Positions 7,862 through 19,275 of a stretch of DNA of 64,000 nucleotides are shown in pieces. Position numbers and translations under genes: made by a program. This stretch comes from Pedobacter sp. (GTDB lineage Bacteria > Desulfobacterota > Desulfuromonadia > Desulfuromonadales > Syntrophotaleaceae). Location of the stretch: contig JBFWJC010000002.1 of assembly GCA_050253415.1 (NCBI GenBank), forward strand, positions 672,725-736,724, read 5' to 3'. The notes under the pieces were generated by a model. The model was not told where the DNA came from. It ran no database searches and saw only the letters and a list, made by a program, of their open reading frames with translations. Every line of letters begins with the position of its first letter. Positions within the stretch are counted from its first letter, which is position 1.

Positions 7862-8833
7862 TTACAAATATAAGGCTGCAACCTCGATCGTATATTTATC
7901 GTTGGAATCATTACTTCCTTTTTGTAGCTTGCGCATAGTCTCCTTGATAAACTCCAGAGCTTCCGGTGTCCCTAAATCACCAATGGATTTCAACGCCATA
8001 TTTTTTTCCTGCCAAGGGGACGTTTGGTAAACCCCCTTGAGATAATCGAACTGCTCGATCGCGCCAATGGTGCCCAGGGAGGACAATGCCGCAATCCTAA
8101 CAACATCCTTCTCATGCTTAGTTAATTCGATCAGGTAAGGTATGGCGTGCTGGTTATTGCTGTATCCAAGTTTATAAACCTCAAGGTAACTCAACTCCGT
8201 AAAGTTATTTTTGATCCCATTCGCGATAGCATCAACATCAGCGTCGGAAATGTGGTAGTTCACAGTAAGCCGATTAATTTTGCTGGCAAATTCTTTAATG
8301 GCAAGGTCGATCGGGATGTTGTAACAGGGCTCGATAACTTCATTGAAACTCCAGACTGGAACTTTCCCGTTCTTGAAATAGGCGGTCACTCGGCTGATTC
8401 TCCCTTCCGCTACAACATCGGCGCTGATGGTCGTGAAGGTGAAGTAGGGCGAAAATCCGGAAGTCCGGTGGTTCCTGATCTGAAATTTATGCAGCTTTAC
8501 CATAACGCCTTCGCCAGTTTGACCGGCAAAGCTCACATTGGCCCCCCTCGCCTTAAGTTCTTTTGCAACATTTTTTTCAAGAAATGCTACCGGATCAATC
8601 GGTTGGCCCTCGTTTGCGAGAGTTGCCGGCAAAACGCCGACATGAAAATTCTGGTCGGCGGCCCGGCGTTCGTCAATGACATGGATTGATAGCTGATCGC
8701 TTTTGGCGTCAGTAAAACCTAAGGTAGAGGGGGTCGGCGTGGCCACTTTATAGTTAGCAGGTGCACAACCAATAGTCAGAGCAAGGGCGAAAATAATTCC
8801 TGCAAAAATAAGCGTTCGCAAGGTTCTGTACAT
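7862..8833 (-). CDS. Lipoprotein with YajG-like N-domain and C-terminal HEAT repeats
   Basis: Lipobox LTIG-C; VIDERR motif; C-terminal VRIAALSSLGTIG / ALKSIGDLGTPEA HEAT-like repeats; AAGGAGG RBS. Confidence 0.75.
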   Translation of the reverse strand: MYRTLRTLIFAGIIFALALTIGCAPANYKVATPTPSTLGFTDAKSDQLSIHVIDERRAADQNFHVGVLPATLANEGQPIDPVAFLEKNVAKELKARGANVSFAGQTGEGVMVKLHKFQIRNHRTSGFSPYFTFTTISADVVAEGRISRVTAYFKNGKVPVWSFNEVIEPCYNIPIDLAIKEFASKINRLTVNYHISDADVDAIANGIKNNFTELSYLEVYKLGYSNNQHAIPYLIELTKHEKDVVRIAALSSLGTIGAIEQFDYLKGVYQTSPWQEKNMALKSIGDLGTPEALEFIKETMRKLQKGSNDSNDKYTIEVAALYL

Positions 8834-9258: not shown

Positions 9259-9309
9259 AATAAGAAATCACACGGAGTCTGTAACGTCTTGTTGATATTG
9301 GAGGGAAAT

Positions 9310-10671
9310 GTGATCCAACCTCAAAACGTCAAGCAGGTTTTATCCCGCCATTTGCTGACCGAGGGTTTCGACATCATCCTTGATCTGGACCGTTCGCAGG
9401 GCAGTTGGTTCGTGGATGAGCGCACCGGCGAGCGTTATCTCGATTTTTTCTCCATGTACGCGTCGATGGCGGTGGGCTACAACCATCCGCGCTTGTTGCA
9501 GGTGCGTGACCAACTGGGACAACTGGCGGTTAACAAGCCTTCCAATTCCGATGTCTATACCACCGCCATGGCGGAATTCGTCGATACCTTTGAGCGTATC
9601 GCCATGCCGCCGGAGATGCCGCATGTGTTCTTTATCGAAGGCGGTGCGCTGGCGGTGGAGAACGCCCTGAAGACCGCTTTTGACTGGAAGGTGCGCAAAA
9701 ACCTGGCCGCGCAACCGGGCAACGATGCCGGCAGTCAGGTGATCCACTTCCGTCAGGCGTTTCACGGTCGCTCCGGTTATACCCTGTCGCTGACCAACAC
9801 CTTCGATCCGCGCAAGACGAGGTTTTTCCCGAAATTCGACTGGCCGCGCATTATCAATCCCAAGCTTACTTTTCCCCTCGATGCCGAGAATCTGGTGCAG
9901 GTCCGTATTCTTGAAAACGAGGCCCTCGGGTCCATCAACCAGGTCCTCGAGGAGCAGGGCGAGGATATTGCGGCGCTGATTATCGAACCGATCCAGGGGG
10001 AGGGGGGCGACAACCATTTCCGCGCGGAATTTCTGCAGGGGTTGCGGCAGCTGTGCGATCGGCATGACATCCTGCTGATCTTCGACGAGGTGCAGACCGG
10101 CGTGGGGCTGACCGGCAAGTTCTGGGCGTTTGAGCATTTCGGCGTGCAACCCGACCTGTTGGCGTTCGGCAAAAAGACCCAGGTGTGCGGTATGCTGGCG
10201 TCGCGGCGAATCGACGAGATCTGCTGCCACGTGTTTCAGGAGCGTAGCCGCATCAACTCGACTTTTGGCGGCAACCTGATCGACATGGTGCGCTGCACCC
10301 ATATCCTGCGCATCATCGAGGAAGAGCAGTTGGTGGACAATGCCCAAGTGCAGGGAGAGCTGCTGCTGTCCGGGCTGCAGAAGCTGGCCGCCGAGTTTCC
10401 GCACCTTGTCACCAACCCTCGAGGGCGGGGCTTGATGTGCGCGTTCGATGCGCCCGACAGCCATACGCGGGACCAGTTGGTGAAGGCGTTTTTCCAACGG
10501 AAGCTGCTGCTGGTCGGCTGCGGTTCGCGCAGTATCCGGTTTCGTCCGCATCTGATCGTGACGGCCGCCGAGATCGCGCAAGCCATGGATATTATCCGCG
10601 ATGTGATGCGCAAGGGGGATTACGTGCATCTGGAAATAACCAAGGATCCCTGTCTGGGGATTGGAACATGA
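9310..10671 (+). CDS. lat: L-lysine 6-transaminase (class III PLP aminotransferase)
   Basis: NKPSNSDVY, GALAVENALKTAFDWK, AFHGRSGYTLSLTNT, IFDEVQTG, FGKKTQVCG, SRINSTFGGN; GTG start after GGAGGG. Confidence 0.93.
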   Translation: MIQPQNVKQVLSRHLLTEGFDIILDLDRSQGSWFVDERTGERYLDFFSMYASMAVGYNHPRLLQVRDQLGQLAVNKPSNSDVYTTAMAEFVDTFERIAMPPEMPHVFFIEGGALAVENALKTAFDWKVRKNLAAQPGNDAGSQVIHFRQAFHGRSGYTLSLTNTFDPRKTRFFPKFDWPRIINPKLTFPLDAENLVQVRILENEALGSINQVLEEQGEDIAALIIEPIQGEGGDNHFRAEFLQGLRQLCDRHDILLIFDEVQTGVGLTGKFWAFEHFGVQPDLLAFGKKTQVCGMLASRRIDEICCHVFQERSRINSTFGGNLIDMVRCTHILRIIEEEQLVDNAQVQGELLLSGLQKLAAEFPHLVTNPRGRGLMCAFDAPDSHTRDQLVKAFFQRKLLLVGCGSRSIRFRPHLIVTAAEIAQAMDIIRDVMRKGDYVHLEITKDPCLGIGT

Positions 10672-12266
10672 TGGGCGATTACCGGACACTGCTGGCGGAG
10701 AAACTGCGCGCCCGCATCGCCGGGCGGGTGCTGGCCGATGGCGAAGGTCTGCGGCCTTACACCCGCGATCAGAGCATCTACCACATCGAACCGTTAGTGG
10801 CGGCGTTGCCCGAGCATTTGGATGACGTATTGGAATTGGTGCGTTTTGCCGCCGAAGAGGGTGTGCCGCTTACCGCCCGGGGCGGCGGGTCGGGTACGGC
10901 GGGCAGCGCGCTGGGGGAGGGGATCGTTATGGCCCTGTCGCACAATGCATTCTGGGGGCGGCTTGAAGGGTTTGACGCCGGCGGCGGGCAGGCCAGGGTC
11001 GATTGCGCGGCGGGGGTGCTGCATAACGATCTGCAGAACTATCTGAAGCAGCGGGGCTATTTCCTGCCGGCGGATGTGTCGAGTGCCGATATCAGCCGCA
11101 TCGGCGGCAATATCGCCACCAAGGCCAGCGGTCCCCATGCCCTCAAGTACGGCTCCATCGACCGCTTCCTGGAGCGGGTGGTATTCGTCAGCGACCGGGG
11201 CGAGCTGGTCGACACCGGCGATGCCTCGAGCATCCCGATGCGTATTATGCGGCAACTGGTCGATCTGCAAAGCCGCATCCGCAGCGATGCCGGGGCGGTG
11301 AAGATCCTGCGGCAGCGCCAGGGGCGCAAAATCGCGAGCGGCTATAACCTGTTCGCATTTTTGGAGCCGTTGTCGCCGGGACAGTTGATCGCTCAACTGC
11401 TGGCCGGCAGTGTGGGCAGTCTCGGTCTGCTGATCGGTGCCACCTTGCGGGGCGAGATTTATGAGCGTCAGCGAGCGGCGGTGCTGGGGTATTTTTCCAG
11501 CATGGTCGAAGCGGGGCGGGCGGTGAATGCGTTACGCAATCTGCCTGTGGCCGCCATCGAAATCATCAGCCGAAAAACCGTGGCGGTACTGCAGCAGCAT
11601 ACCGACGTGCCGGCCAACATGGCCATGAATGCCCATCTGCTGTTGGTGGAATTGAACGGCCCCGGCTGCATGGAACAGGTCGAACGGGTTAAGCATGTAT
11701 TGGAGGGCAACGGCTTTCGCATGAGCGCGCCATGCCAGGTGGCCCTTGACGAGCCCGGCATCGAACAGCTATGGGCGCTGCGCAAGCAGATCCTGTGGCT
11801 GATTCGCCATCCCGAGCCGCATCTGCGCGCCCTGTCGGTGGTTAACGATGTAGGGGTGCCGCCCGAGCATCTGGCCGAATTCATTCATGAAGTGCAGAAG
11901 GTATTTGACCGGCACCAGATGGTGGTCCTTATTTACGGGCACGCCGGCAGTGGCAACCTCCATCTGCGGCCTTTGTTCGATGTAACCTTGCCGGATCTGC
12001 CGGGGCGGATCCAAAAAGTGGCCGATGCTGTGTACGAGGTGGTGTTTCGCTATGGCGGCACTATTTCCGCAGAGCACGGCATGGGGCGTTTGCGGGCGCC
12101 TTACCTGCAGCGCGAATGGGGCCCGGCACTGTATGGTTATATGCGCGAGCTCAAGGATATCTTTGATCCGCGGGGGATGTTCAATCCCGGGGTGGTGTTC
12201 AGTGATCGTCCTATCACCGAACACCTGCGCGATGATCTGGCTGACAAGGGAGGTGCGGCATGGTAG
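10668..12266 (+). CDS. FAD-linked D-2-hydroxyacid dehydrogenase (GlcD/D-LDH/D-2-HG dehydrogenase family; no C-terminal Fe-S domain)
   Basis: RGGGSGTAG FAD loop, IGGNIATKASG, GYNL, HAGSGNLHLRP, AEHGMG, FDPRGMFNPG; ATGA overlap with lat stop. Confidence 0.88.
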   Translation: MMGDYRTLLAEKLRARIAGRVLADGEGLRPYTRDQSIYHIEPLVAALPEHLDDVLELVRFAAEEGVPLTARGGGSGTAGSALGEGIVMALSHNAFWGRLEGFDAGGGQARVDCAAGVLHNDLQNYLKQRGYFLPADVSSADISRIGGNIATKASGPHALKYGSIDRFLERVVFVSDRGELVDTGDASSIPMRIMRQLVDLQSRIRSDAGAVKILRQRQGRKIASGYNLFAFLEPLSPGQLIAQLLAGSVGSLGLLIGATLRGEIYERQRAAVLGYFSSMVEAGRAVNALRNLPVAAIEIISRKTVAVLQQHTDVPANMAMNAHLLLVELNGPGCMEQVERVKHVLEGNGFRMSAPCQVALDEPGIEQLWALRKQILWLIRHPEPHLRALSVVNDVGVPPEHLAEFIHEVQKVFDRHQMVVLIYGHAGSGNLHLRPLFDVTLPDLPGRIQKVADAVYEVVFRYGGTISAEHGMGRLRAPYLQREWGPALYGYMRELKDIFDPRGMFNPGVVFSDRPITEHLRDDLADKGGAAW

Positions 12267-13609
12267 AGGAACAGGGATTTTTCTGGCAGCGGCACGCAGC
12301 GGCGGAGCAATTGGTTCTGGATGCCCTCGACGACCTCACCCGCAAGAACACCGCCCTTGCGAAATTGCGCCAGCGCCTGGCCGAGCAGGCAAGCTGCCGT
12401 TTATTCGATTGGGTCGATCACCTGCAACTGCCCGATACGCCAGAGCTGCGGGAACGTCTGGACGCCCTGCTTTTCATCCGACAACCCTATGGGGGACATG
12501 CGGCTTATTATCATCCGGGGGCCTTGCTGCCGGCAATGGTTTTGGTTCCCAATGTCATGAACGTCCATGGTGCAGTGGCCCTGCGCGTCGATAGTATCGC
12601 GGATTTTTTGCAGGCCAATAATTTTGTCGCCGCTATCGAGGGCAGCCCTTTCAGTCCCCTGCGGCGTGCCATGTGCCATTGCGAGGCCGGGGTAGAGTTG
12701 TTGGTGGTGGAGAGGCGCGGCAACCTGGGGTTCGATCCCGCCACCCGGCCCGCACATTGGTTGCAGGACTATCTGGCGGCCCTGGAATTGTGGCAGACCC
12801 GGCCGCGACTGGGCGCCGACGAAGATCGGTTATGGTTGGAGACCTTCCGCCGCACCGAACAGTTGGTGGCGCGGTTGGGCATGGATCTGGCCGCGCATGT
12901 CGTGTGCCGGGGCGAGCGGCGTTATTGGGAGGCACGCAATGCCGCCGGTCGCTTGCAGAAAAGCCGCCAGGATGTGCTGGGTCTGGGCTGGGGCAACCAC
13001 GACCATCATACCTTTCGCAGTTCGCGACGGCACTTTGCCCGCTTGGTCAAGCTGTTCTCCCGCCTCGGGTTTGTGGCGCGGGAGCGATTCTATGCCGGTG
13101 AACAGGCTGGCTGGGGGGCACAGGTCATGGAGAATCGCATCGCCGGCTTGAGCCTGTTTCTCGATGTTGATCTGGCACCGGAGGAAGTGGAGACCGATTT
13201 TTCCCGCGAGGAGTTGCCGGAGCGGGAAACCCTCGGCACCGTGGGGTTGTGGTGCGCCTTGCACGGCGACTCGATCTTCGCCGGGGGGATGCACCATCTT
13301 GCAGCGCGCTGCGATTTCGAGCGCCTTGTCTCCGACCTGGCCCGGTTTGGTGTTAAGTTCATGGCACCTTTCAGCGATTTTCCCTGGCTCAAACAGGCTT
13401 TCAGCGTTGGCGAGCGGTGGCCGGTTGATGCGGGTCGGTTGGAGATGCTGGTTATGAAAAAGCTGCTGAGTCGTGAACAGGCGGATAAATTTCTGGCTGA
13501 GGGCGCTATCGGCAGTCATCTTGAAAATATCCAGCGCGATGAAGGCTATAAAGGCTTCAACAAAAACAACGTCAGCGCTATTATCCGCAAGACCGACCCG
13601 CGCCTGTGA
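12260..13609 (+). CDS. Two-domain VOC (HPPD/HglS-like) putative Fe(II) metalloenzyme
   Basis: NHDHHTFR ... GGMHHLAAR ... GVKFM ... LKQAFS ... HLENIQR..GYKGFNKNNVSAII parallels the HPPD DH / QHIAL / GV.F / LLQIFT / FEIIQR..GFG.GNF motifs; GGAGG RBS; overlaps upstream stop. Confidence 0.65.
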   Translation: MVEEQGFFWQRHAAAEQLVLDALDDLTRKNTALAKLRQRLAEQASCRLFDWVDHLQLPDTPELRERLDALLFIRQPYGGHAAYYHPGALLPAMVLVPNVMNVHGAVALRVDSIADFLQANNFVAAIEGSPFSPLRRAMCHCEAGVELLVVERRGNLGFDPATRPAHWLQDYLAALELWQTRPRLGADEDRLWLETFRRTEQLVARLGMDLAAHVVCRGERRYWEARNAAGRLQKSRQDVLGLGWGNHDHHTFRSSRRHFARLVKLFSRLGFVARERFYAGEQAGWGAQVMENRIAGLSLFLDVDLAPEEVETDFSREELPERETLGTVGLWCALHGDSIFAGGMHHLAARCDFERLVSDLARFGVKFMAPFSDFPWLKQAFSVGERWPVDAGRLEMLVMKKLLSREQADKFLAEGAIGSHLENIQRDEGYKGFNKNNVSAIIRKTDPRL

Positions 13610-13755
13610 CCGGGCGGGTGGGATGTTTTTCGGCAAGACCAAACCCGTGGGTTATGCTATGGTTTGGCTTGGTCAAGCCTTTGAATTTGTTGTTATTAAA
13701 ATCACAAGTGATCGTTATTGCAAAATTCTAAACCACATTCTCAAAGGCTTATTTA

Positions 13756-13937: not shown

Positions 13938-14726
13938 ATGCAAGAAATCATCAAAATCGCTGAAGATGCGGCCCGCCAAGCCGGGGCCTATATTATCGAA
14001 GCCATGTCCGGTTTGCGCCAGGTTGATTACAAGGGGCGCGTTGACATGGTGACCAACGTTGATCGCGGCTCGGAAGCCATCATCCTCGAGTGCATCCGAC
14101 GGACTTACCCTGAACATGCTATTCTGGCCGAGGAAACCGGCGACAATCAGCTGAGCAGCGATTGGCGCTGGGTGATCGATCCTATCGACGGCACCACCAA
14201 CTTCGTACACGGCTACCCGTTCTTTTGTGTGTCCATTGCTGTGCAGTTCCGGCAGCAGACGGTCGCTGCGGTGGTGTTTGATCCGATGCATGATGAAATG
14301 TTTTCCGCTTTGCTCGGCCAGGGCGCGTTTCTCAACGGCGCGCCTTTGCGGGTTTCCCAGACCACGGAACTGTCCAAATCGTTGCTGGCGACAGGTTTTC
14401 CCTACGATCTGGGTGACCGCTGGCATCGCTCCATGGATTATTTCAAACTGTTTTATTATCAGACCCACGGGGTGCGGCGCGATGGCGCGGCGGCGCTGGA
14501 TCTGTGTTACGTTGCGGCGGGCCGTTTTGATGGTTTTTGGGAATACGACCTGAAACCCTGGGATGTGGCTGCCGGTCTGTTGCTGGTGACCGAAGCCGGC
14601 GGCAAAGTCACCGATTTTAAGGGCAACCCCAGTGCTCTTGGCGATGGCCAGTTGGTGGCCAGCAACGGTGGCCTGCACGATCGCATGCTCGAAGTGCTTG
14701 GCTCTTTACCTGCTGTGCAGGTTTGA
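13938..14726 (+). CDS. suhB: Inositol monophosphatase family protein
   Basis: WVIDPIDGTTNFVHG, GAAALDLCYVAAGRFDGFWE, WDVAAG. Confidence 0.92.
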   Translation: MQEIIKIAEDAARQAGAYIIEAMSGLRQVDYKGRVDMVTNVDRGSEAIILECIRRTYPEHAILAEETGDNQLSSDWRWVIDPIDGTTNFVHGYPFFCVSIAVQFRQQTVAAVVFDPMHDEMFSALLGQGAFLNGAPLRVSQTTELSKSLLATGFPYDLGDRWHRSMDYFKLFYYQTHGVRRDGAAALDLCYVAAGRFDGFWEYDLKPWDVAAGLLLVTEAGGKVTDFKGNPSALGDGQLVASNGGLHDRMLEVLGSLPAVQV

Positions 14727-14750: not shown

Positions 14751-15557
14751 ATGACCAGCCCGCAAATGATTTACCTGCTTTCCGATGCGACCGGCGAGAC
14801 TGCTGAGAAGATCGTGAACGCGGTTTTGACCCAGTTCCGGGATAAGCCGGTACGTATGCGGCGCATCAGCAACGTGCGTAACGAGACTACCGTGAAGCAA
14901 GGCCTCGAAGAGATCATGAAGAACCCGGGGATGGTGGTCTATACCATCGTCAACCGGGATCTTGCGCAATATATTCAGAACGAATGCGAGGAGAGGGGAC
15001 TGATGGCCTTTGACCTGGTGACGCCGCTGCTTTCCCAGTTCTCCAAATTTTTCGGGCGCTTGCCTGGGCAAACTCCGGGATTGTTACACGAGATGGATGA
15101 GGAATACTTTCGTCGCATCGAAGCTGTGGAGTTTACCGTCAAGCATGACGACGGCCAGGAAGTGCGTCACCTGACGCATGCGGATATTGTGCTGGTCGGG
15201 GTTTCCCGTACAAGCAAGACCCCCCTGTCCACTTACCTGGCCCATCTTGGCTGGAAGGTCGCCAACGTGCCGCTGGTGCTTGGGATCGATCCCCCCAAGG
15301 AACTGTTTCAGGTCGATCCCAGGCGGGTTGCGGCGCTGTATATCGATCCGCAGCGTCTGGTGGAGTTACGTTCGGCACGGCTCAAAAATCTCGGTCAGGA
15401 CCCGCGAGGAGCCTACGCCGGGATCGAAGAGATCGAGGAAGAACTGCGCTATGCCAAGGTGCTTTATCGTCGCAATGGTTGGACGACGATCAATGTTTCG
15501 GGCAAGGCGGTAGAGGAAACGGCCCATGAGGTGCTGGTCAAATTGAAAATGAAATGA
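14751..15557 (+). CDS. ppsR: PEP synthase/PPDK regulatory protein (kinase/pyrophosphorylase, DUF299)
   Basis: [47 protein letters not shown]. Confidence 0.92.
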
Positions 15558-15597: not shown

Positions 15598-16665
15598 TCA
15601 GTGAGTTTTGGATAGCTGGTCCTCGGCTGTTATGAGCGCGTCGGCCTCTTTTTTTAACCGGTCGGCCAAGGTTCCAACCGCCAGGGCGAAAGATGTCGAT
15701 CGGTTCCAGCGCATCAACGTGCGGAAGTTGCCGGTAACCAGAAACGCCTGTCCATCGGGACCGTCGGGCAGGATCAGCGAGGCGTTCAGGTCATCCGCTC
15801 CGCCGGATACCGGTATTCCCAACTCGCGCCAGTCCCGCAAGGTTTTTTTGATTTTTGAATCGGCCAGGGACCGGTCGAAGCCTTCGGGGAGCACGACCAG
15901 CCAGCCCCATTTCTGATCTTTTGTCCATCCTGCACGGGCCAGGTAGCTGGCGGCCGAGGCCACCGCGTCTTCCACATCCGTCCAGATATTGCGATGTCCG
16001 TCACCGTTGAAATCGACGGCATAGTCACGGTAGGTGGTCGGGATGAACTGAAAGTGACCCATGGCTCCGGCCCAGGACCCGCGCAGATCTTCACTGCGCA
16101 TCTGTTCCTGGTCCAGGATCGTCAGGGCGGCCAGCAACTGTTTGCGGAAAAATGCCTGACGCTCCCCCTGATAGGCCTGGGTAGCCAGCGCGCCGATGAC
16201 CGCATGGCGGCGGCCGCCTTTGCCGAAATCGCTCTCGATGGCCCACAGGGCGACCAGGTATTCAGGCTGTACGCCATAGGTTTCCGATACCTTTTGCAGC
16301 AGTACCCGGTGTTGGGCTATCTGCCGTAAACCTTCATGAAGACGCTGGTCCGAGGCGAGTCGTCGCACATATTCGAGCTTGGTCAGGGAGAATTCGGCTT
16401 GCTTTTGGCGGGGCGTAACGACGGCCGGTATCGGCTGCAGTCCATCAAGGGCTTCTTGTAAAACCTCCGGGCGTATCCCCTGTGCCAGGGCTTCCTGTCG
16501 CAGTTCCTCCAGCCAAATTTCAAAATTCTGTTGTTCTGTGTTTTGCACTTTTTCAACGATGGGCGGTAACACCTGCTCCACTTTGCGGGGAGTTGGAGCA
16601 CACGCCGTTATCAGGAGTAAAAGTGCGCTGGCCGTTAGTGCTGCGGAATAATGTAACTTGATCAT
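15598..16665 (-). CDS. Lytic murein transglycosylase (MltB/SLT_2 family) lipoprotein
   Basis: Lipobox ITA-C; ALWAIESDFG catalytic Glu; GSWAGAMGHFQFIP; DFNGDG EF-hand; WNRSTSFALAV. Confidence 0.9.
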   Translation of the reverse strand: MIKLHYSAALTASALLLLITACAPTPRKVEQVLPPIVEKVQNTEQQNFEIWLEELRQEALAQGIRPEVLQEALDGLQPIPAVVTPRQKQAEFSLTKLEYVRRLASDQRLHEGLRQIAQHRVLLQKVSETYGVQPEYLVALWAIESDFGKGGRRHAVIGALATQAYQGERQAFFRKQLLAALTILDQEQMRSEDLRGSWAGAMGHFQFIPTTYRDYAVDFNGDGHRNIWTDVEDAVASAASYLARAGWTKDQKWGWLVVLPEGFDRSLADSKIKKTLRDWRELGIPVSGGADDLNASLILPDGPDGQAFLVTGNFRTLMRWNRSTSFALAVGTLADRLKKEADALITAEDQLSKTH

Positions 16666-16866: not shown

Positions 16867-19275
16867 ATGACAGAGTTCACGCATATCATGTGGTTTGAGG
16901 ATATCGGTCTTTACGATTTGCCACTGGTGGGGGGGAAAAATGCCTCGCTGGGCGAGATGATCGGCAATCTGTCCGATCTGGGCATCAGGGTGCCCGGAGG
17001 GTTTGCCGTAACGGCCGAGGCGTATCGGTACTTTTTGCGTGAAACGGGGTTGGAAAAGCAAATCACAAACCTGTTGACCGATCTCGACACGGACAACATG
17101 GACAGTCTGGCGACGATCGGGCACCAGGTACGCCGGGCCATCCGCCATGCTGAATTGCCCGATGGTCTGGAACAGGCCATCCGTACCGCCTATGCCCAGA
17201 TGGAGCAGCAATATGGTACGGATTGCGATGTGGCGGTGCGTTCCAGTGCCACCGCAGAGGATCTGCCCGACGCTTCGTTTGCCGGTCAACAGGAAACCTA
17301 TCTCAATATTCGCGGCGCCGACGAACTGCTCAGCGCCTGCCGCAACTGTTTTGCCTCTCTGTTCACCAACCGGGCGCTGTCCTACCGGGTCCATCATGGA
17401 TTCGATCACATGGCCGTGGCGCTGTCCATCGGGGTGCAGAAGATGGTGCGTTCGGATCTGGCCAGCGCCGGAGTCATGTTCACCATCTCGACGGAGACCG
17501 GTTTTCGCGATGTGGTGTTGATCAACGGCGCATGGGGACTGGGTGAAAACGTGGTGCGTGGTGCGGTCAATCCCGATGAATTTTTTGTTTTCAAGCCGAC
17601 CCTCAAGCAGGGCTATCGCCCGATCATCAGCAAGCATGTCGGCAGCAAAAAGAAGAAAATTATTTACAGCATCAATAACGGTCCGCAACCGACCCGCGAG
17701 ATCACGGTACCGATTGAGGATCGCGAACGTCTTTGCCTGGACGACGACGAGGTGCTGGCCCTGGCGCGCATGGCGTGCGTGATCGAAGACCATTACAAGC
17801 GGCCTATGGACATCGAATGGGCCAAGGACGGTGAAACAGGCGAGCTGTTTATCGTACAGGCCCGACCGGAAACCGTGCAATCTTCCCTGCAGGGCAACGT
17901 ACTCGAGGAATACCATCTGCGGCAGCGCGGTGACGTCATCACCCAGGGGCGCGCGGTTGGCAGCAAGATCGGCGTCGGCAAGGCCATTGTCATCAAGGAC
18001 GCCTCCGAAATCGCACGGTTTCAGGCCGGTGCCGTGCTGGTGACCGATATGACCGACCCCGACTGGGAACCGGTCATGAAAAAAGCCGCGGCCATCGTCA
18101 CAAACCGTGGCGGTCGTACCTGCCATGCGGCTATTGTCAGCCGTGAACTCGGTATCCCCTGCGTTATCGGTACCGCCGATGGCACGACGACCATTGCCGA
18201 CGGCGATGCGGTGACCGTATGCTGTGCCGAGGGGGAAACCGGCTTCGTTTATCGGGGTGAGCTGGCTTTTGAAATTAAGAAAACCGACCTCGAAGAGCTT
18301 AAACGGCCGCGCACAAAAATCATGATGAATATCGGTAATCCCGAACAAGCCTTCGGATTGCGGCGCATACCGAACGACGGTGTCGGTTTGGCGCGTCTCG
18401 AATTCATTATCAATACCGTCATCCAGGCCCATCCTATAGCCCTGTTGCATCCGGACCGGATTGCGGATGCGGATGAGCGCGAAAAGATCGCGCAACTGAT
18501 TACCGGGTATCCCGATGGCGGCGAATATTTCGTGGATAAGCTCGCCCAGGGTGTGGCCACGTTGGCGGCGGCGTTTTATCCCAACGACGTGATTGTGCGC
18601 ATGAGCGATTTCAAGAGTAACGAATACGCCAACCTGCTTGGCGGACGGGCTTTCGAGCCGGAAGAATCGAACCCCATGATTGGTTTTCGCGGGGCCTCGC
18701 GCTATTATGACGATCGCTATCGCGAGGGCTTTATGCTGGAGTGCCGAGCCATGAAGCGGGTACGCGAGGAAATGGGGCTCACCAACGTCAAACTGATGAT
18801 TCCCTTCTGTCGTACCGTTGAAGAAGGGCGGCGGGTGGTCGAGGTCATGGCCGGGGCAGGACTGGAAAGGGGCAAGGATGGTCTCGAGCTGTATGTGATG
18901 TGCGAAATTCCGTCCAACGTGGTGCTGGCCGAAGAGTTCGCCGAGGTGTTCGACGGTTTTTCCATCGGTTCCAACGACCTGACCCAGCTGTTGTTGGGGC
19001 TGGATCGCGACTCCGAGATCGTCGCCCATCTCTACGATGAGCGCAACGAGGCAGTCACGCGCATGATCGCCGACGTCATCCGGCGAGTCAAGGCGGTAGG
19101 GTGTAAAATCGGTATCTGCGGACAGGCACCGAGCGATTATCCGGAGTTCGCCGCGTTTCTGGTCGAGTGCGGCATTGACAGTATCTCGCTCAATCCGGAT
19201 ACGGTGCTGGCCACCACCTTGAGTATTCTGGAACTGGAAGCGAAGTTGAATAAGCATCGCGAGGCTGGAGGTTAA
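16867..19275 (+). CDS. ppsA: Phosphoenolpyruvate synthase
   Basis: VGGKNASLGEM, AVRSSATAEDLPDASFAGQQETYLN, GGRTCHAAIVSRE phospho-His, FSIGSNDLTQ. Confidence 0.97.
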   Translation: MTEFTHIMWFEDIGLYDLPLVGGKNASLGEMIGNLSDLGIRVPGGFAVTAEAYRYFLRETGLEKQITNLLTDLDTDNMDSLATIGHQVRRAIRHAELPDGLEQAIRTAYAQMEQQYGTDCDVAVRSSATAEDLPDASFAGQQETYLNIRGADELLSACRNCFASLFTNRALSYRVHHGFDHMAVALSIGVQKMVRSDLASAGVMFTISTETGFRDVVLINGAWGLGENVVRGAVNPDEFFVFKPTLKQGYRPIISKHVGSKKKKIIYSINNGPQPTREITVPIEDRERLCLDDDEVLALARMACVIEDHYKRPMDIEWAKDGETGELFIVQARPETVQSSLQGNVLEEYHLRQRGDVITQGRAVGSKIGVGKAIVIKDASEIARFQAGAVLVTDMTDPDWEPVMKKAAAIVTNRGGRTCHAAIVSRELGIPCVIGTADGTTTIADGDAVTVCCAEGETGFVYRGELAFEIKKTDLEELKRPRTKIMMNIGNPEQAFGLRRIPNDGVGLARLEFIINTVIQAHPIALLHPDRIADADEREKIAQLITGYPDGGEYFVDKLAQGVATLAAAFYPNDVIVRMSDFKSNEYANLLGGRAFEPEESNPMIGFRGASRYYDDRYREGFMLECRAMKRVREEMGLTNVKLMIPFCRTVEEGRRVVEVMAGAGLERGKDGLELYVMCEIPSNVVLAEEFAEVFDGFSIGSNDLTQLLLGLDRDSEIVAHLYDERNEAVTRMIADVIRRVKAVGCKIGICGQAPSDYPEFAAFLVECGIDSISLNPDTVLATTLSILELEAKLNKHREAGG

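Follow-up and report, generated by a model that had tools for sequence, protein, structure and literature searches.

We analysed a stretch of 64,000 nucleotides (the window) from contig JBFWJC010000002.1, which is deposited as Pedobacter sp. and placed by GTDB in the Syntrophotaleaceae of the Desulfobacterota. One of its genes, at 12260..13609 on the + strand (the target gene), encodes a 449 amino acid protein with two vicinal oxygen chelate (VOC) domains and represents a family that has no Pfam model. Our proposal, which we hold to be evenly balanced between right and wrong, is that this protein is an Fe(II)- and O2-dependent synthase that forms D-2-hydroxyglutarate from 2-oxoadipate and that cannot be recognised as such by its sequence. 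Neither the fold nor the likely chemistry is new; what is new is a family unseen by sequence methods, its architecture of tandem units and its place in the lysine operons of anaerobes.

A full-length model of the protein, built with AlphaFold2 (AF2) from 43 sequences, reached a pLDDT of 81.5 and a pTM of 0.84. Searched with Foldseek, it returned hydroxymandelate synthase (HMS) and 4-hydroxyphenylpyruvate dioxygenase (HPPD) at the top of the list, with E values of about 1e-5 and global TM scores of 0.18–0.24. Owing to these poor TM scores and to a low pLDDT in part of the chain, residues 165–449 (12752..13606, +), which span a helical linker and a C-terminal VOC barrel of the catalytic type, were modelled alone from an alignment of 95 sequences. 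The resulting model had a pLDDT of 95.6 and a pTM of 0.93. It begins with four helices (166–239), followed by a strand (247–253), a helix (256–268), three strands (272–278, 286–292 and 297–303) and the helices of residues 307–342. The second module consists of a strand (346–350), a helix (353–361), strands within 372–387, two inserted helices (391–414) and a long last strand (416–426), and a C-terminal helix (435–444) ends the chain. As modelled, the C-terminal unit is a complete paired beta-alpha-beta-beta-beta barrel, the arrangement by which the VOC superfamily is recognised.

We compared the model of residues 165–449 with 48,161 representative chains in a wide VIA-align search and took a second look, also with VIA-align, at the structures listed by Foldseek. 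Nearly all matches of the target models were VOC proteins. For the C-terminal unit, the wide search ranked DUF1338 structures highest: 3iuz (Z 16.5, 217 residues aligned, root-mean-square deviation (rmsd) 4.1), the rice hydroxyglutarate synthase (HglS) with 2-oxoadipate, 6w1k (Z 16.3, 210 aligned, rmsd 3.3; over both comparisons Z 16.3–16.5, 205–210 aligned, rmsd 3.0–3.3) and 3lho (Z 15.9, 193 of 254 aligned, rmsd 2.9). These were followed by HMS (2r5v; Z 12.6, 167 aligned, rmsd 2.9), by YdcJ (2rjb; Z 11.8 in the wide search and in the range of 12.3–12.4 in the second look, 201 aligned, rmsd 3.7) and by HPPD (8xtv; Z 9.5, 182 aligned, rmsd 3.9). The second look gave Z 13.5 for HMS 3zgj, 12.4 for human HPPD (3isq), 12.3 for Pseudomonas putida HglS (6w1g/6w1h) and 12.2 for the HPPD of P. 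fluorescens. Small single-domain VOC enzymes scored about 8–9. Foldseek also had HMS 3zgj on top for the C-terminal unit (E 8.1e-7). Judged from its model, the C-terminal unit falls clearly within the group of intramolecular 2-oxoacid decarboxylating hydroxylases.

In HPPD-type VOC sites, the metal is bound from the first, the fifth and the last strand of the barrel. In the target protein these strands carry three residues that are highly conserved in an alignment of 88 diverse family members (30–87% identity to the target). The proposed first ligand, His249 (codon 13004..13006, +), lies in D-H-H-T-F-R on the first strand (247–253) and is a His in 81 of the 88 members. His346 (13295..13297, +), the proposed second ligand, lies in G-M-H-H-L-A on the fifth strand (346–350; His in 78). 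The Glu ligand would be Glu422, which opens the stretch Glu422-Asn-Ile-Gln425-Arg426 (13523..13537, +) on the last strand (416–426) and is conserved in 78 members. All three residues occur together in 76 of the 88 sequences, and the exceptions are the 12 most divergent members, at 29–38% identity. From position and motif we infer that the three side chains would meet at one metal site. H249 and H346, and not their neighbours H250 and H345, are the likely ligands of the two adjacent His pairs; this choice follows the alignment to the D-H and G-V-Q-H motifs of HPPD. Arginines are conserved as well. Arg253 (13016..13018, +), four residues after His249, is an Arg in 80 of 88 members and is proposed to bind the distal carboxylate of the substrate, R256 is found in 87 and R426 in 85, and R274 is a further conserved Arg near the proposed site. 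Four other histidines are also conserved: H250 (76/88), H335 (84/88), H345 (77/88) and H420 (75/88).

In the divergent members (e.g. P0215, P0225, P0233 and P0244) at least one of H249, H346 and E422 is gone, and often the C-terminal motif too. These 12 may form a branch that has degenerated or functions differently, or they may reflect an artefact of alignment or gene calling.

The target gene is the third gene of an operon. The first (9289..10671, +) encodes an L-lysine 6-transaminase (LAT), identified by the NCBIfam equivalog TIGR03251 LAT_fam (766.9 bits, cut-off 520.8) and by Pfam Aminotran_3. The second (10668..12266, +) encodes an FAD-linked oxidase of the D-2-hydroxyacid dehydrogenase type (GlcD, D-lactate dehydrogenase, D-2-hydroxyglutarate dehydrogenase or the N-terminal part of YdiJ), with the Pfam domains FAD_binding_4 and FAD-oxidase_C. 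Its probable start is the ATG at 10668; the longest open reading frame begins at a GTG at 10437. The top NCBIfam models for this enzyme were the D-2-hydroxyglutarate dehydrogenase YdiJ (209.5 bits, under the cut-off) and GlcD, and its closest solved relatives, glycolate oxidase, D-lactate dehydrogenase and D-2-hydroxyglutarate dehydrogenase, are similarly distant from it. The LAT stop codon TGA (10669–10671) overlaps the ATG of the FAD gene in ATGA, and the stop codon TAG of the FAD gene (12264–12266) overlaps the target ATG in ATGGTAG. To judge from these overlaps, the target gene is translationally coupled to those for LAT and the FAD enzyme. A GGAGG ribosome-binding site (12250..12254, +) can be read 5 nt upstream of the target ATG, and a consensus scan alone marked a terminator-like hairpin with a T-run at the end of the operon (13601..13630, +).

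The same arrangement recurs in related genomes. Of 502 pattern-matched stretches in a collection with one genome per species, 489 encode a relative of the target, and the comparison of loci is based on 80 that were kept from these 489. Their record titles name Desulfuromonadales, Geobacteraceae, Desulfobulbaceae, Nitrospirota, many environmental Chlamydiota, KSB1, Verrucomicrobia and a Cytophagia metagenome-assembled genome. By title we divided them into 22 Desulfobacterota-type or Nitrospirota loci (L001–L018, L021, L022, L024 and L068) and 58 others. In the first group, at least 1.6 kb of upstream sequence was present in 19 of 22 loci, and the short FAD enzyme lies directly upstream of the target homologue in 18. 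LAT was found in 13 of the 22, and in eight an aldehyde dehydrogenase gene precedes that for LAT. Two of these aldehyde dehydrogenases were scanned, and both proved to be equivalogs of L-piperideine-6-carboxylate dehydrogenase (760.3 and 774.3 bits, against a cut-off of 730).

The reaction that we infer, in its metal, its need for O2, its substrate, its product and its order of steps, would be that of a mononuclear Fe(II), O2-dependent intramolecular 2-oxoacid decarboxylase-hydroxylase, the reaction class of HglS, HMS and HPPD: 2-oxoadipate + O2 → D-2-hydroxyglutarate + CO2. The iron would be held in the C-terminal VOC barrel by His249, His346 and Glu422 and chelated by the carboxylate and keto oxygens of the 2-oxoacid, with Arg253, and possibly Arg256 or Arg274 as well, holding the distal carboxylate. 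The N-terminal unit would serve a structural role as a degenerate copy, comparable to the N-domain of HPPD. In the pathway that we envisage, LAT would convert L-lysine to piperideine-6-carboxylate/aminoadipate semialdehyde, the aldehyde dehydrogenase (in the operon of related genomes) would yield 2-aminoadipate, and a transaminase would turn this into 2-oxoadipate. The target enzyme would then form 2-hydroxyglutarate, to be oxidised to 2-oxoglutarate by the FAD enzyme encoded upstream. Such a route would mirror that of P. putida and plants, in which lysine is degraded from 2-oxoadipate through D-2-hydroxyglutarate to 2-oxoglutarate, as given in the published account (PMC7286885).

Several observations weigh against this proposal. 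At the level of sequence, the target protein matched neither TIGR01263 nor any Pfam family that would tie it to HPPD or HMS, and hhalign probabilities to four HPPDs were at most 14%. Against E. coli YdcJ alone, or against a long-type DUF1338 profile made of seven sequences from E. coli and plasmid records, they were below 3%. In the full-length model residues 420–449, which include E422, had a pLDDT below 50. H250, H335, H345 and H420 have no counterpart known in HglS or HPPD, and the metal site or the chemistry could therefore be another one. Neither the short FAD enzyme nor LAT adjoins the target homologue in the remaining 58 loci, which are mostly those of Chlamydiota, and LAT scored above its cut-off in none of five genomes with LAT-free loci, where the substrate may differ. 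In the genome from which the window derives, the pathway has gaps: the best match to the piperideine-6-carboxylate dehydrogenase model reached 385.6 bits (cut-off 730), and no 2-aminoadipate transaminase was identified there. The best aldehyde dehydrogenase of this genome is 38% identical to that of the operon in related genomes. Finally, the closest named relative belongs to Syntrophotalea carbinolica and many carriers are labelled Desulfuromonadales, Nitrospirota or Desulfobulbaceae. For the most part these live as strict anaerobes, and a catabolic step that depends on O2 is hard to square with this. The genome of the window does encode a cytochrome bd oxidase, and the host thus meets some O2.

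Some of these points suit other explanations. That the protein belongs to the same Fe(II)/O2 class of decarboxylating hydroxylases and acts on a different 2-oxoacid we regard as fairly unlikely. With the FAD dehydrogenase it would then make up a general C1-shortening module, 2-oxoacid(n) → 2-hydroxyacid(n-1) → 2-oxoacid(n-1). No pair is conserved as often as the FAD enzyme and the target (18 of 22 loci; LAT is found in 13), no single substrate can be assigned to the FAD enzyme, and the lack of LAT near 58 of the 80 loci, with a bona fide LAT in 0 of 5 such genomes, points the same way. Where further context is present, however, it is specifically that of the conversion of lysine to 2-aminoadipate (LAT and the piperideine-6-carboxylate dehydrogenase equivalogs), and the conserved R253, R256 and R274 suit a dicarboxylate such as 2-oxoadipate. 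The anaerobic lineages of most carriers would be easier to reconcile with an O2-independent VOC metalloenzyme (an isomerase, epimerase, lyase or hydrolase) acting on lysine-derived piperideine-6-carboxylate, on aminoadipate semialdehyde or on a 2-hydroxyacid. The superfamily includes such enzymes, methylmalonyl-CoA epimerases and glyoxalases matched the fold at Z about 9, and the extra conserved histidines depart from the HglS/HPPD pattern. Yet the closest folds are those of O2-dependent decarboxylating hydroxylases (Z 12–16.5 versus about 9), the proposed 2-His-1-Glu positions and the E-x-x-Q-R motif match those of the same group, the adjoining D-2-hydroxyacid dehydrogenase suits a 2-hydroxyacid product, and cytochrome bd is present in the genome; we consider this explanation rather unlikely.

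A non-catalytic protein, be it a binding or regulatory protein of VOC fold or a pseudoenzyme, seems to us very improbable. At least one proposed ligand is missing from 12 of the 88 members and the N-terminal unit is already degenerate, but many polar residues of the C-terminal unit are very strongly conserved across phyla, and the gene is translationally coupled inside a catabolic operon. A bolder version of the proposal, which we think distinctly improbable, is that intramolecular 2-oxoacid decarboxylase-hydroxylases have, next to HPPD/HMS and DUF1338, a third lineage in this family, which would have arisen by tandem duplication of a DUF1338-like unit and would work in strictly anaerobic Desulfobacterota and Nitrospirota without free O2 or with traces of it. 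H250, H335, H345 and H420 could then belong to a modified or second metal site, or serve another oxidant. Were this so, 2-oxoadipate from lysine could be turned into 2-oxoglutarate under anaerobic or micro-oxic conditions.

The protein itself had been described in an earlier note on this DNA, which was made from the letters without database searches. The open reading frame is real: the listing shows it uninterrupted from its ATG start. All motifs quoted in the note were found in the translation in the order given, namely VDHLQL (residue 52, in the N-terminal half), VALRVDS (106), LLVVERRG (147), DHHTFR (248), GTVGLWCALHG (326), GGMHHLAAR (342), LARFGVKFM (360), WLKQAFS (376) and HLENIQRDEGYKGFNKNNVSAII (420). 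The note had read this order as that of HPPD. By sequence alone the resemblance does not rise above chance, since profile-profile alignment to HPPDs gave probabilities of 1–14% and P values of 0.002–0.05; predicted structure and conservation do bear it out. The same alignments were collinear, with H346 on the His of G-V-Q-H-I-A and E422-x-x-Q-R on E-x-I-Q-R. The paired VOC fold that the note expected is predicted in both halves of the protein, and the conservation of the His-His-Glu set among homologues agrees with its claim. It had also suggested a separate, uncharacterised family between HPPD and DUF1338. This placement is supported, with DUF1338/HglS as the nearest fold neighbours followed by HMS and HPPD, and can be refined: the fold is nearer to DUF1338/HglS than to HPPD.

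The protein was rightly called unannotated, as no Pfam-A or NCBIfam model matched it at E ≤ 0.01, and a weak Glyoxalase match (PF00903, E 0.19) was the sole Pfam match at E ≤ 10. The PF07063 (HGLS) model matched neither the target (E ≤ 10) nor any of the 88 aligned members (E ≤ 1), and by this model the target is not a member of that family; a Pfam scan of all 88 at E ≤ 1 found no family in more than four of them. Sequence searches of the PDB with the target protein and with a 43-sequence profile gave chance-level matches (E about 0.7). The ESM Atlas returned only the unnamed clusters of the target's own family, and a query of its named clusters with the C-terminal part yielded no usable match.

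The family is large. A word-indexed search in which 8000 candidates were scored yielded 6178 proteins related to the target at E ≤ 0.001, and an exhaustive profile search found 934 cluster representatives (50% identity) at E ≤ 0.001 and 269 at E ≤ 1e-30. The best 120 of the 6178 relatives are 56–92% identical to the target; none has a precomputed Pfam domain, nearly all are annotated in their source as 'hypothetical protein', and three carry the JGI label '4-hydroxyphenylpyruvate dioxygenase-like putative hemolysin'. Pcar_2440 of Syntrophotalea carbinolica DSM 2380 (87% identity) is the closest named relative among the matches listed. The family is rare in the phylum of the window, occurring in two of 201 sampled genomes, one of which is the genome of the window itself. 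Its patchy spread, over Desulfobacterota, Nitrospirota, Chlamydiota and KSB1, may be a sign of horizontal transfer.

Our literature searches, which did not extend to supplementary material, found no paper on the family. None was found on Pcar_2440 or its neighbours, on Pelobacter carbinolicus together with lysine 6-aminotransferase, or on anaerobic lysine degradation via 2-oxoadipate/2-hydroxyglutarate, and no paper retrieved for 'hydroxyglutarate synthase' dealt with the family by its title or abstract.

The established HglS family was looked for as well. PF07063 had no match in the genome of the window (100% complete; six-frame search), in 201 genomes of its phylum, in three other carrier genomes or in 61 genomes of another phylum; the E. 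coli ydcJ control was found each time in the searches of the window's genome, of its phylum and of the other carriers. In six loci without LAT, the wider neighbourhood included no gene related to the pathway.

The N-terminal unit (residues 1–164; 12260..12751, +) is predicted to consist of two helices and a VOC barrel and resembles DUF1338. When the full-length model was compared by VIA-align, in a second look at the Foldseek list and in a separate wide search, DUF1338 structures again came first, with all of these matches on residues 7–162: 3iuz (Z 12.3, 152 aligned, rmsd 2.9), 3lho (Z 11.9–12.0) and 6w1k (Z 10.5–11.2). From the VIA-align neighbours of each half, both can be described as DUF1338-like units in which helices precede the barrel, and the protein looks like a tandem repeat of such a unit. 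Aligned with each other, the two halves are collinear over the whole unit, and the alignment is weak (probability 4%, P 0.011). In it, A107 lies opposite H346, L148 opposite E422, E151 opposite Q425 and R152 opposite R426. The N-terminal unit is also less conserved, with H54 in 61 and H85 in 64 of the 88 members. Read in this way, it is probably a degenerate, non-catalytic copy, comparable to the N-domain of HPPD, in which the second His and the Glu are missing. The N-terminal domain was considered as the catalytic one and rejected for its weaker conservation and for the Ala and Leu at the positions of the second His and the Glu.

The 58 other loci have neighbours of their own. The genes usually found upstream of the target homologue encode an NAD-epimerase and a PfkB kinase, which we take to be heptose/lipopolysaccharide genes in the chlamydial loci; they were identified by Pfam matches only and were set aside as functional partners. 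A long YdiJ-type enzyme with FAD, Fe-S and CCG parts is encoded in 15 of the 58 loci, with YdiJ as its best model at 596 bits, under the cut-off. In five chlamydial or verrucomicrobial loci (L025, L032, L035, L065 and L079), the succinylarginine dihydrolase AstB (Pfam E 3.3e-197 in L079) is encoded 3' of the target homologue and the long YdiJ-like enzyme, and in L025, L032 and L035 an aldehyde dehydrogenase gene comes next after that for AstB. This stretch could be an amino-acid catabolic island.

Within the window, the operon (9289–13609) is slightly richer in GC than its surroundings (LAT 0.581, FAD enzyme 0.620 and target 0.603, versus 0.574 for the window). Pfam matches on its 3' side identified an inositol monophosphatase family protein (13938–14726, +), a member of the Kinase-PPPase (kinase/pyrophosphorylase) family (14751–15557, +), an SLT_2 lytic transglycosylase (15598–16665, -) and a PPDK_N/PEP-utilizers protein (16867–19275, +). 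The PEP-utilizers and Kinase-PPPase proteins resemble PEP synthase and its regulatory protein, respectively. These genes seem unrelated to the target. On the 5' side, 7862–8833 (-) encodes a protein of 323 amino acids whose N-terminus resembles that of a lipoprotein and which contains HEAT/PBS-lyase repeats (Pfam HEAT_2, E 5.5e-9); its GC content is 0.465, versus 0.574 for the window.

With the proposed assignment, a family of thousands without a family model would gain a concrete function that can be tested. If the target is a hydroxyglutarate synthase, it would close the gap between 2-oxoadipate and 2-oxoglutarate in lysine catabolism where PF07063 was not found, as in the 201 genomes of the phylum. 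It would also be a tandem-domain branch that ties DUF1338 to the HPPD/HMS architecture, and one would have to ask how a step that needs O2 runs in presumed strict anaerobes. Enzymes that form or remove D-2-hydroxyglutarate also have practical appeal, in biosensing and in metabolic engineering.

Like glyoxalase I and methylmalonyl-CoA epimerase, the target protein has the paired beta-alpha-beta-beta-beta barrel. Unlike it, these small VOC enzymes are much shorter and use other ligand sets, and by fold score they stand clearly further from it than the decarboxylating hydroxylases do. The likeness to HPPD and HMS goes further. These enzymes also have two VOC barrels, of which the C-terminal one carries the His/His/Glu set (a predicted metal site in the target), followed by a C-terminal helix. 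The order of motifs is common to them and the target: D-H; G-x-x-H-[IL]-A; [YW]-L-x-Q-x-F-[TS]; and E-x-I-Q-R...G-F. In the four bona fide HPPDs that served as reference (TIGR01263 391–431 bits, cut-off 277), D-H, G-x-Q-H-x-A and E-x-I-Q-R...G-F-G-x-G-N-F are invariant, and the counterparts in the target are D248-H249, G-M-H-H346-L-A and E422-N-I-Q-R...G-F. The target differs from HPPD in lacking P-I-N-E-P, which is invariant in all four HPPDs and whose INEP the earlier note had correctly reported missing; Arg-rich positions may take the place of the aromatic pocket. It also has a helical linker of about 75 residues and the helical insert 391–414, and its genes are set in lysine catabolism, not in that of tyrosine. 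A search with TIGR01263 over 301 genomes of the window's phylum gave matches to small glyoxalase-domain proteins, none of them above the cut-off.

HglS and DUF1338 are represented by the structures 6w1g and 6w1h (P. putida), 6w1k (rice FLO7), 3iuz, 3lho and 2rjb. The target differs from HglS in its two tandem DUF1338-like units, the first of them degenerate, in the extra conserved H250, H335, H345 and H420, and in its carriers, which are mostly of anaerobic lineages and environmental chlamydiae. The likenesses concern fold, motifs and gene setting. HglS/DUF1338 is the best structural match of both halves of the target, with helices before the VOC barrel, and the putative His/His/Glu set of the target lies on the strands that would correspond. 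The motifs of P. putida HglS are E-R-H70-G-A-I-R74, N-H226-L-T-P-R and F-G-E294-I-E-Q-R-G (residues counted from the alignment), and we take H70, H226 and E294 to be its metal ligands. E422-x-x-Q-R of the target corresponds to E294-I-E-Q-R, and R253 follows H249 at the same distance of four residues as R74 follows H70 in H70-G-A-I-R74, an equivalence by position. According to the published account, R74 of HglS binds the distal carboxylate of 2-oxoadipate (PMC7286885). As in the pathway of P. putida and plants described there (PMC7286885), the target is encoded together with enzymes that lead from lysine to 2-aminoadipate and with a D-2-hydroxyacid dehydrogenase.

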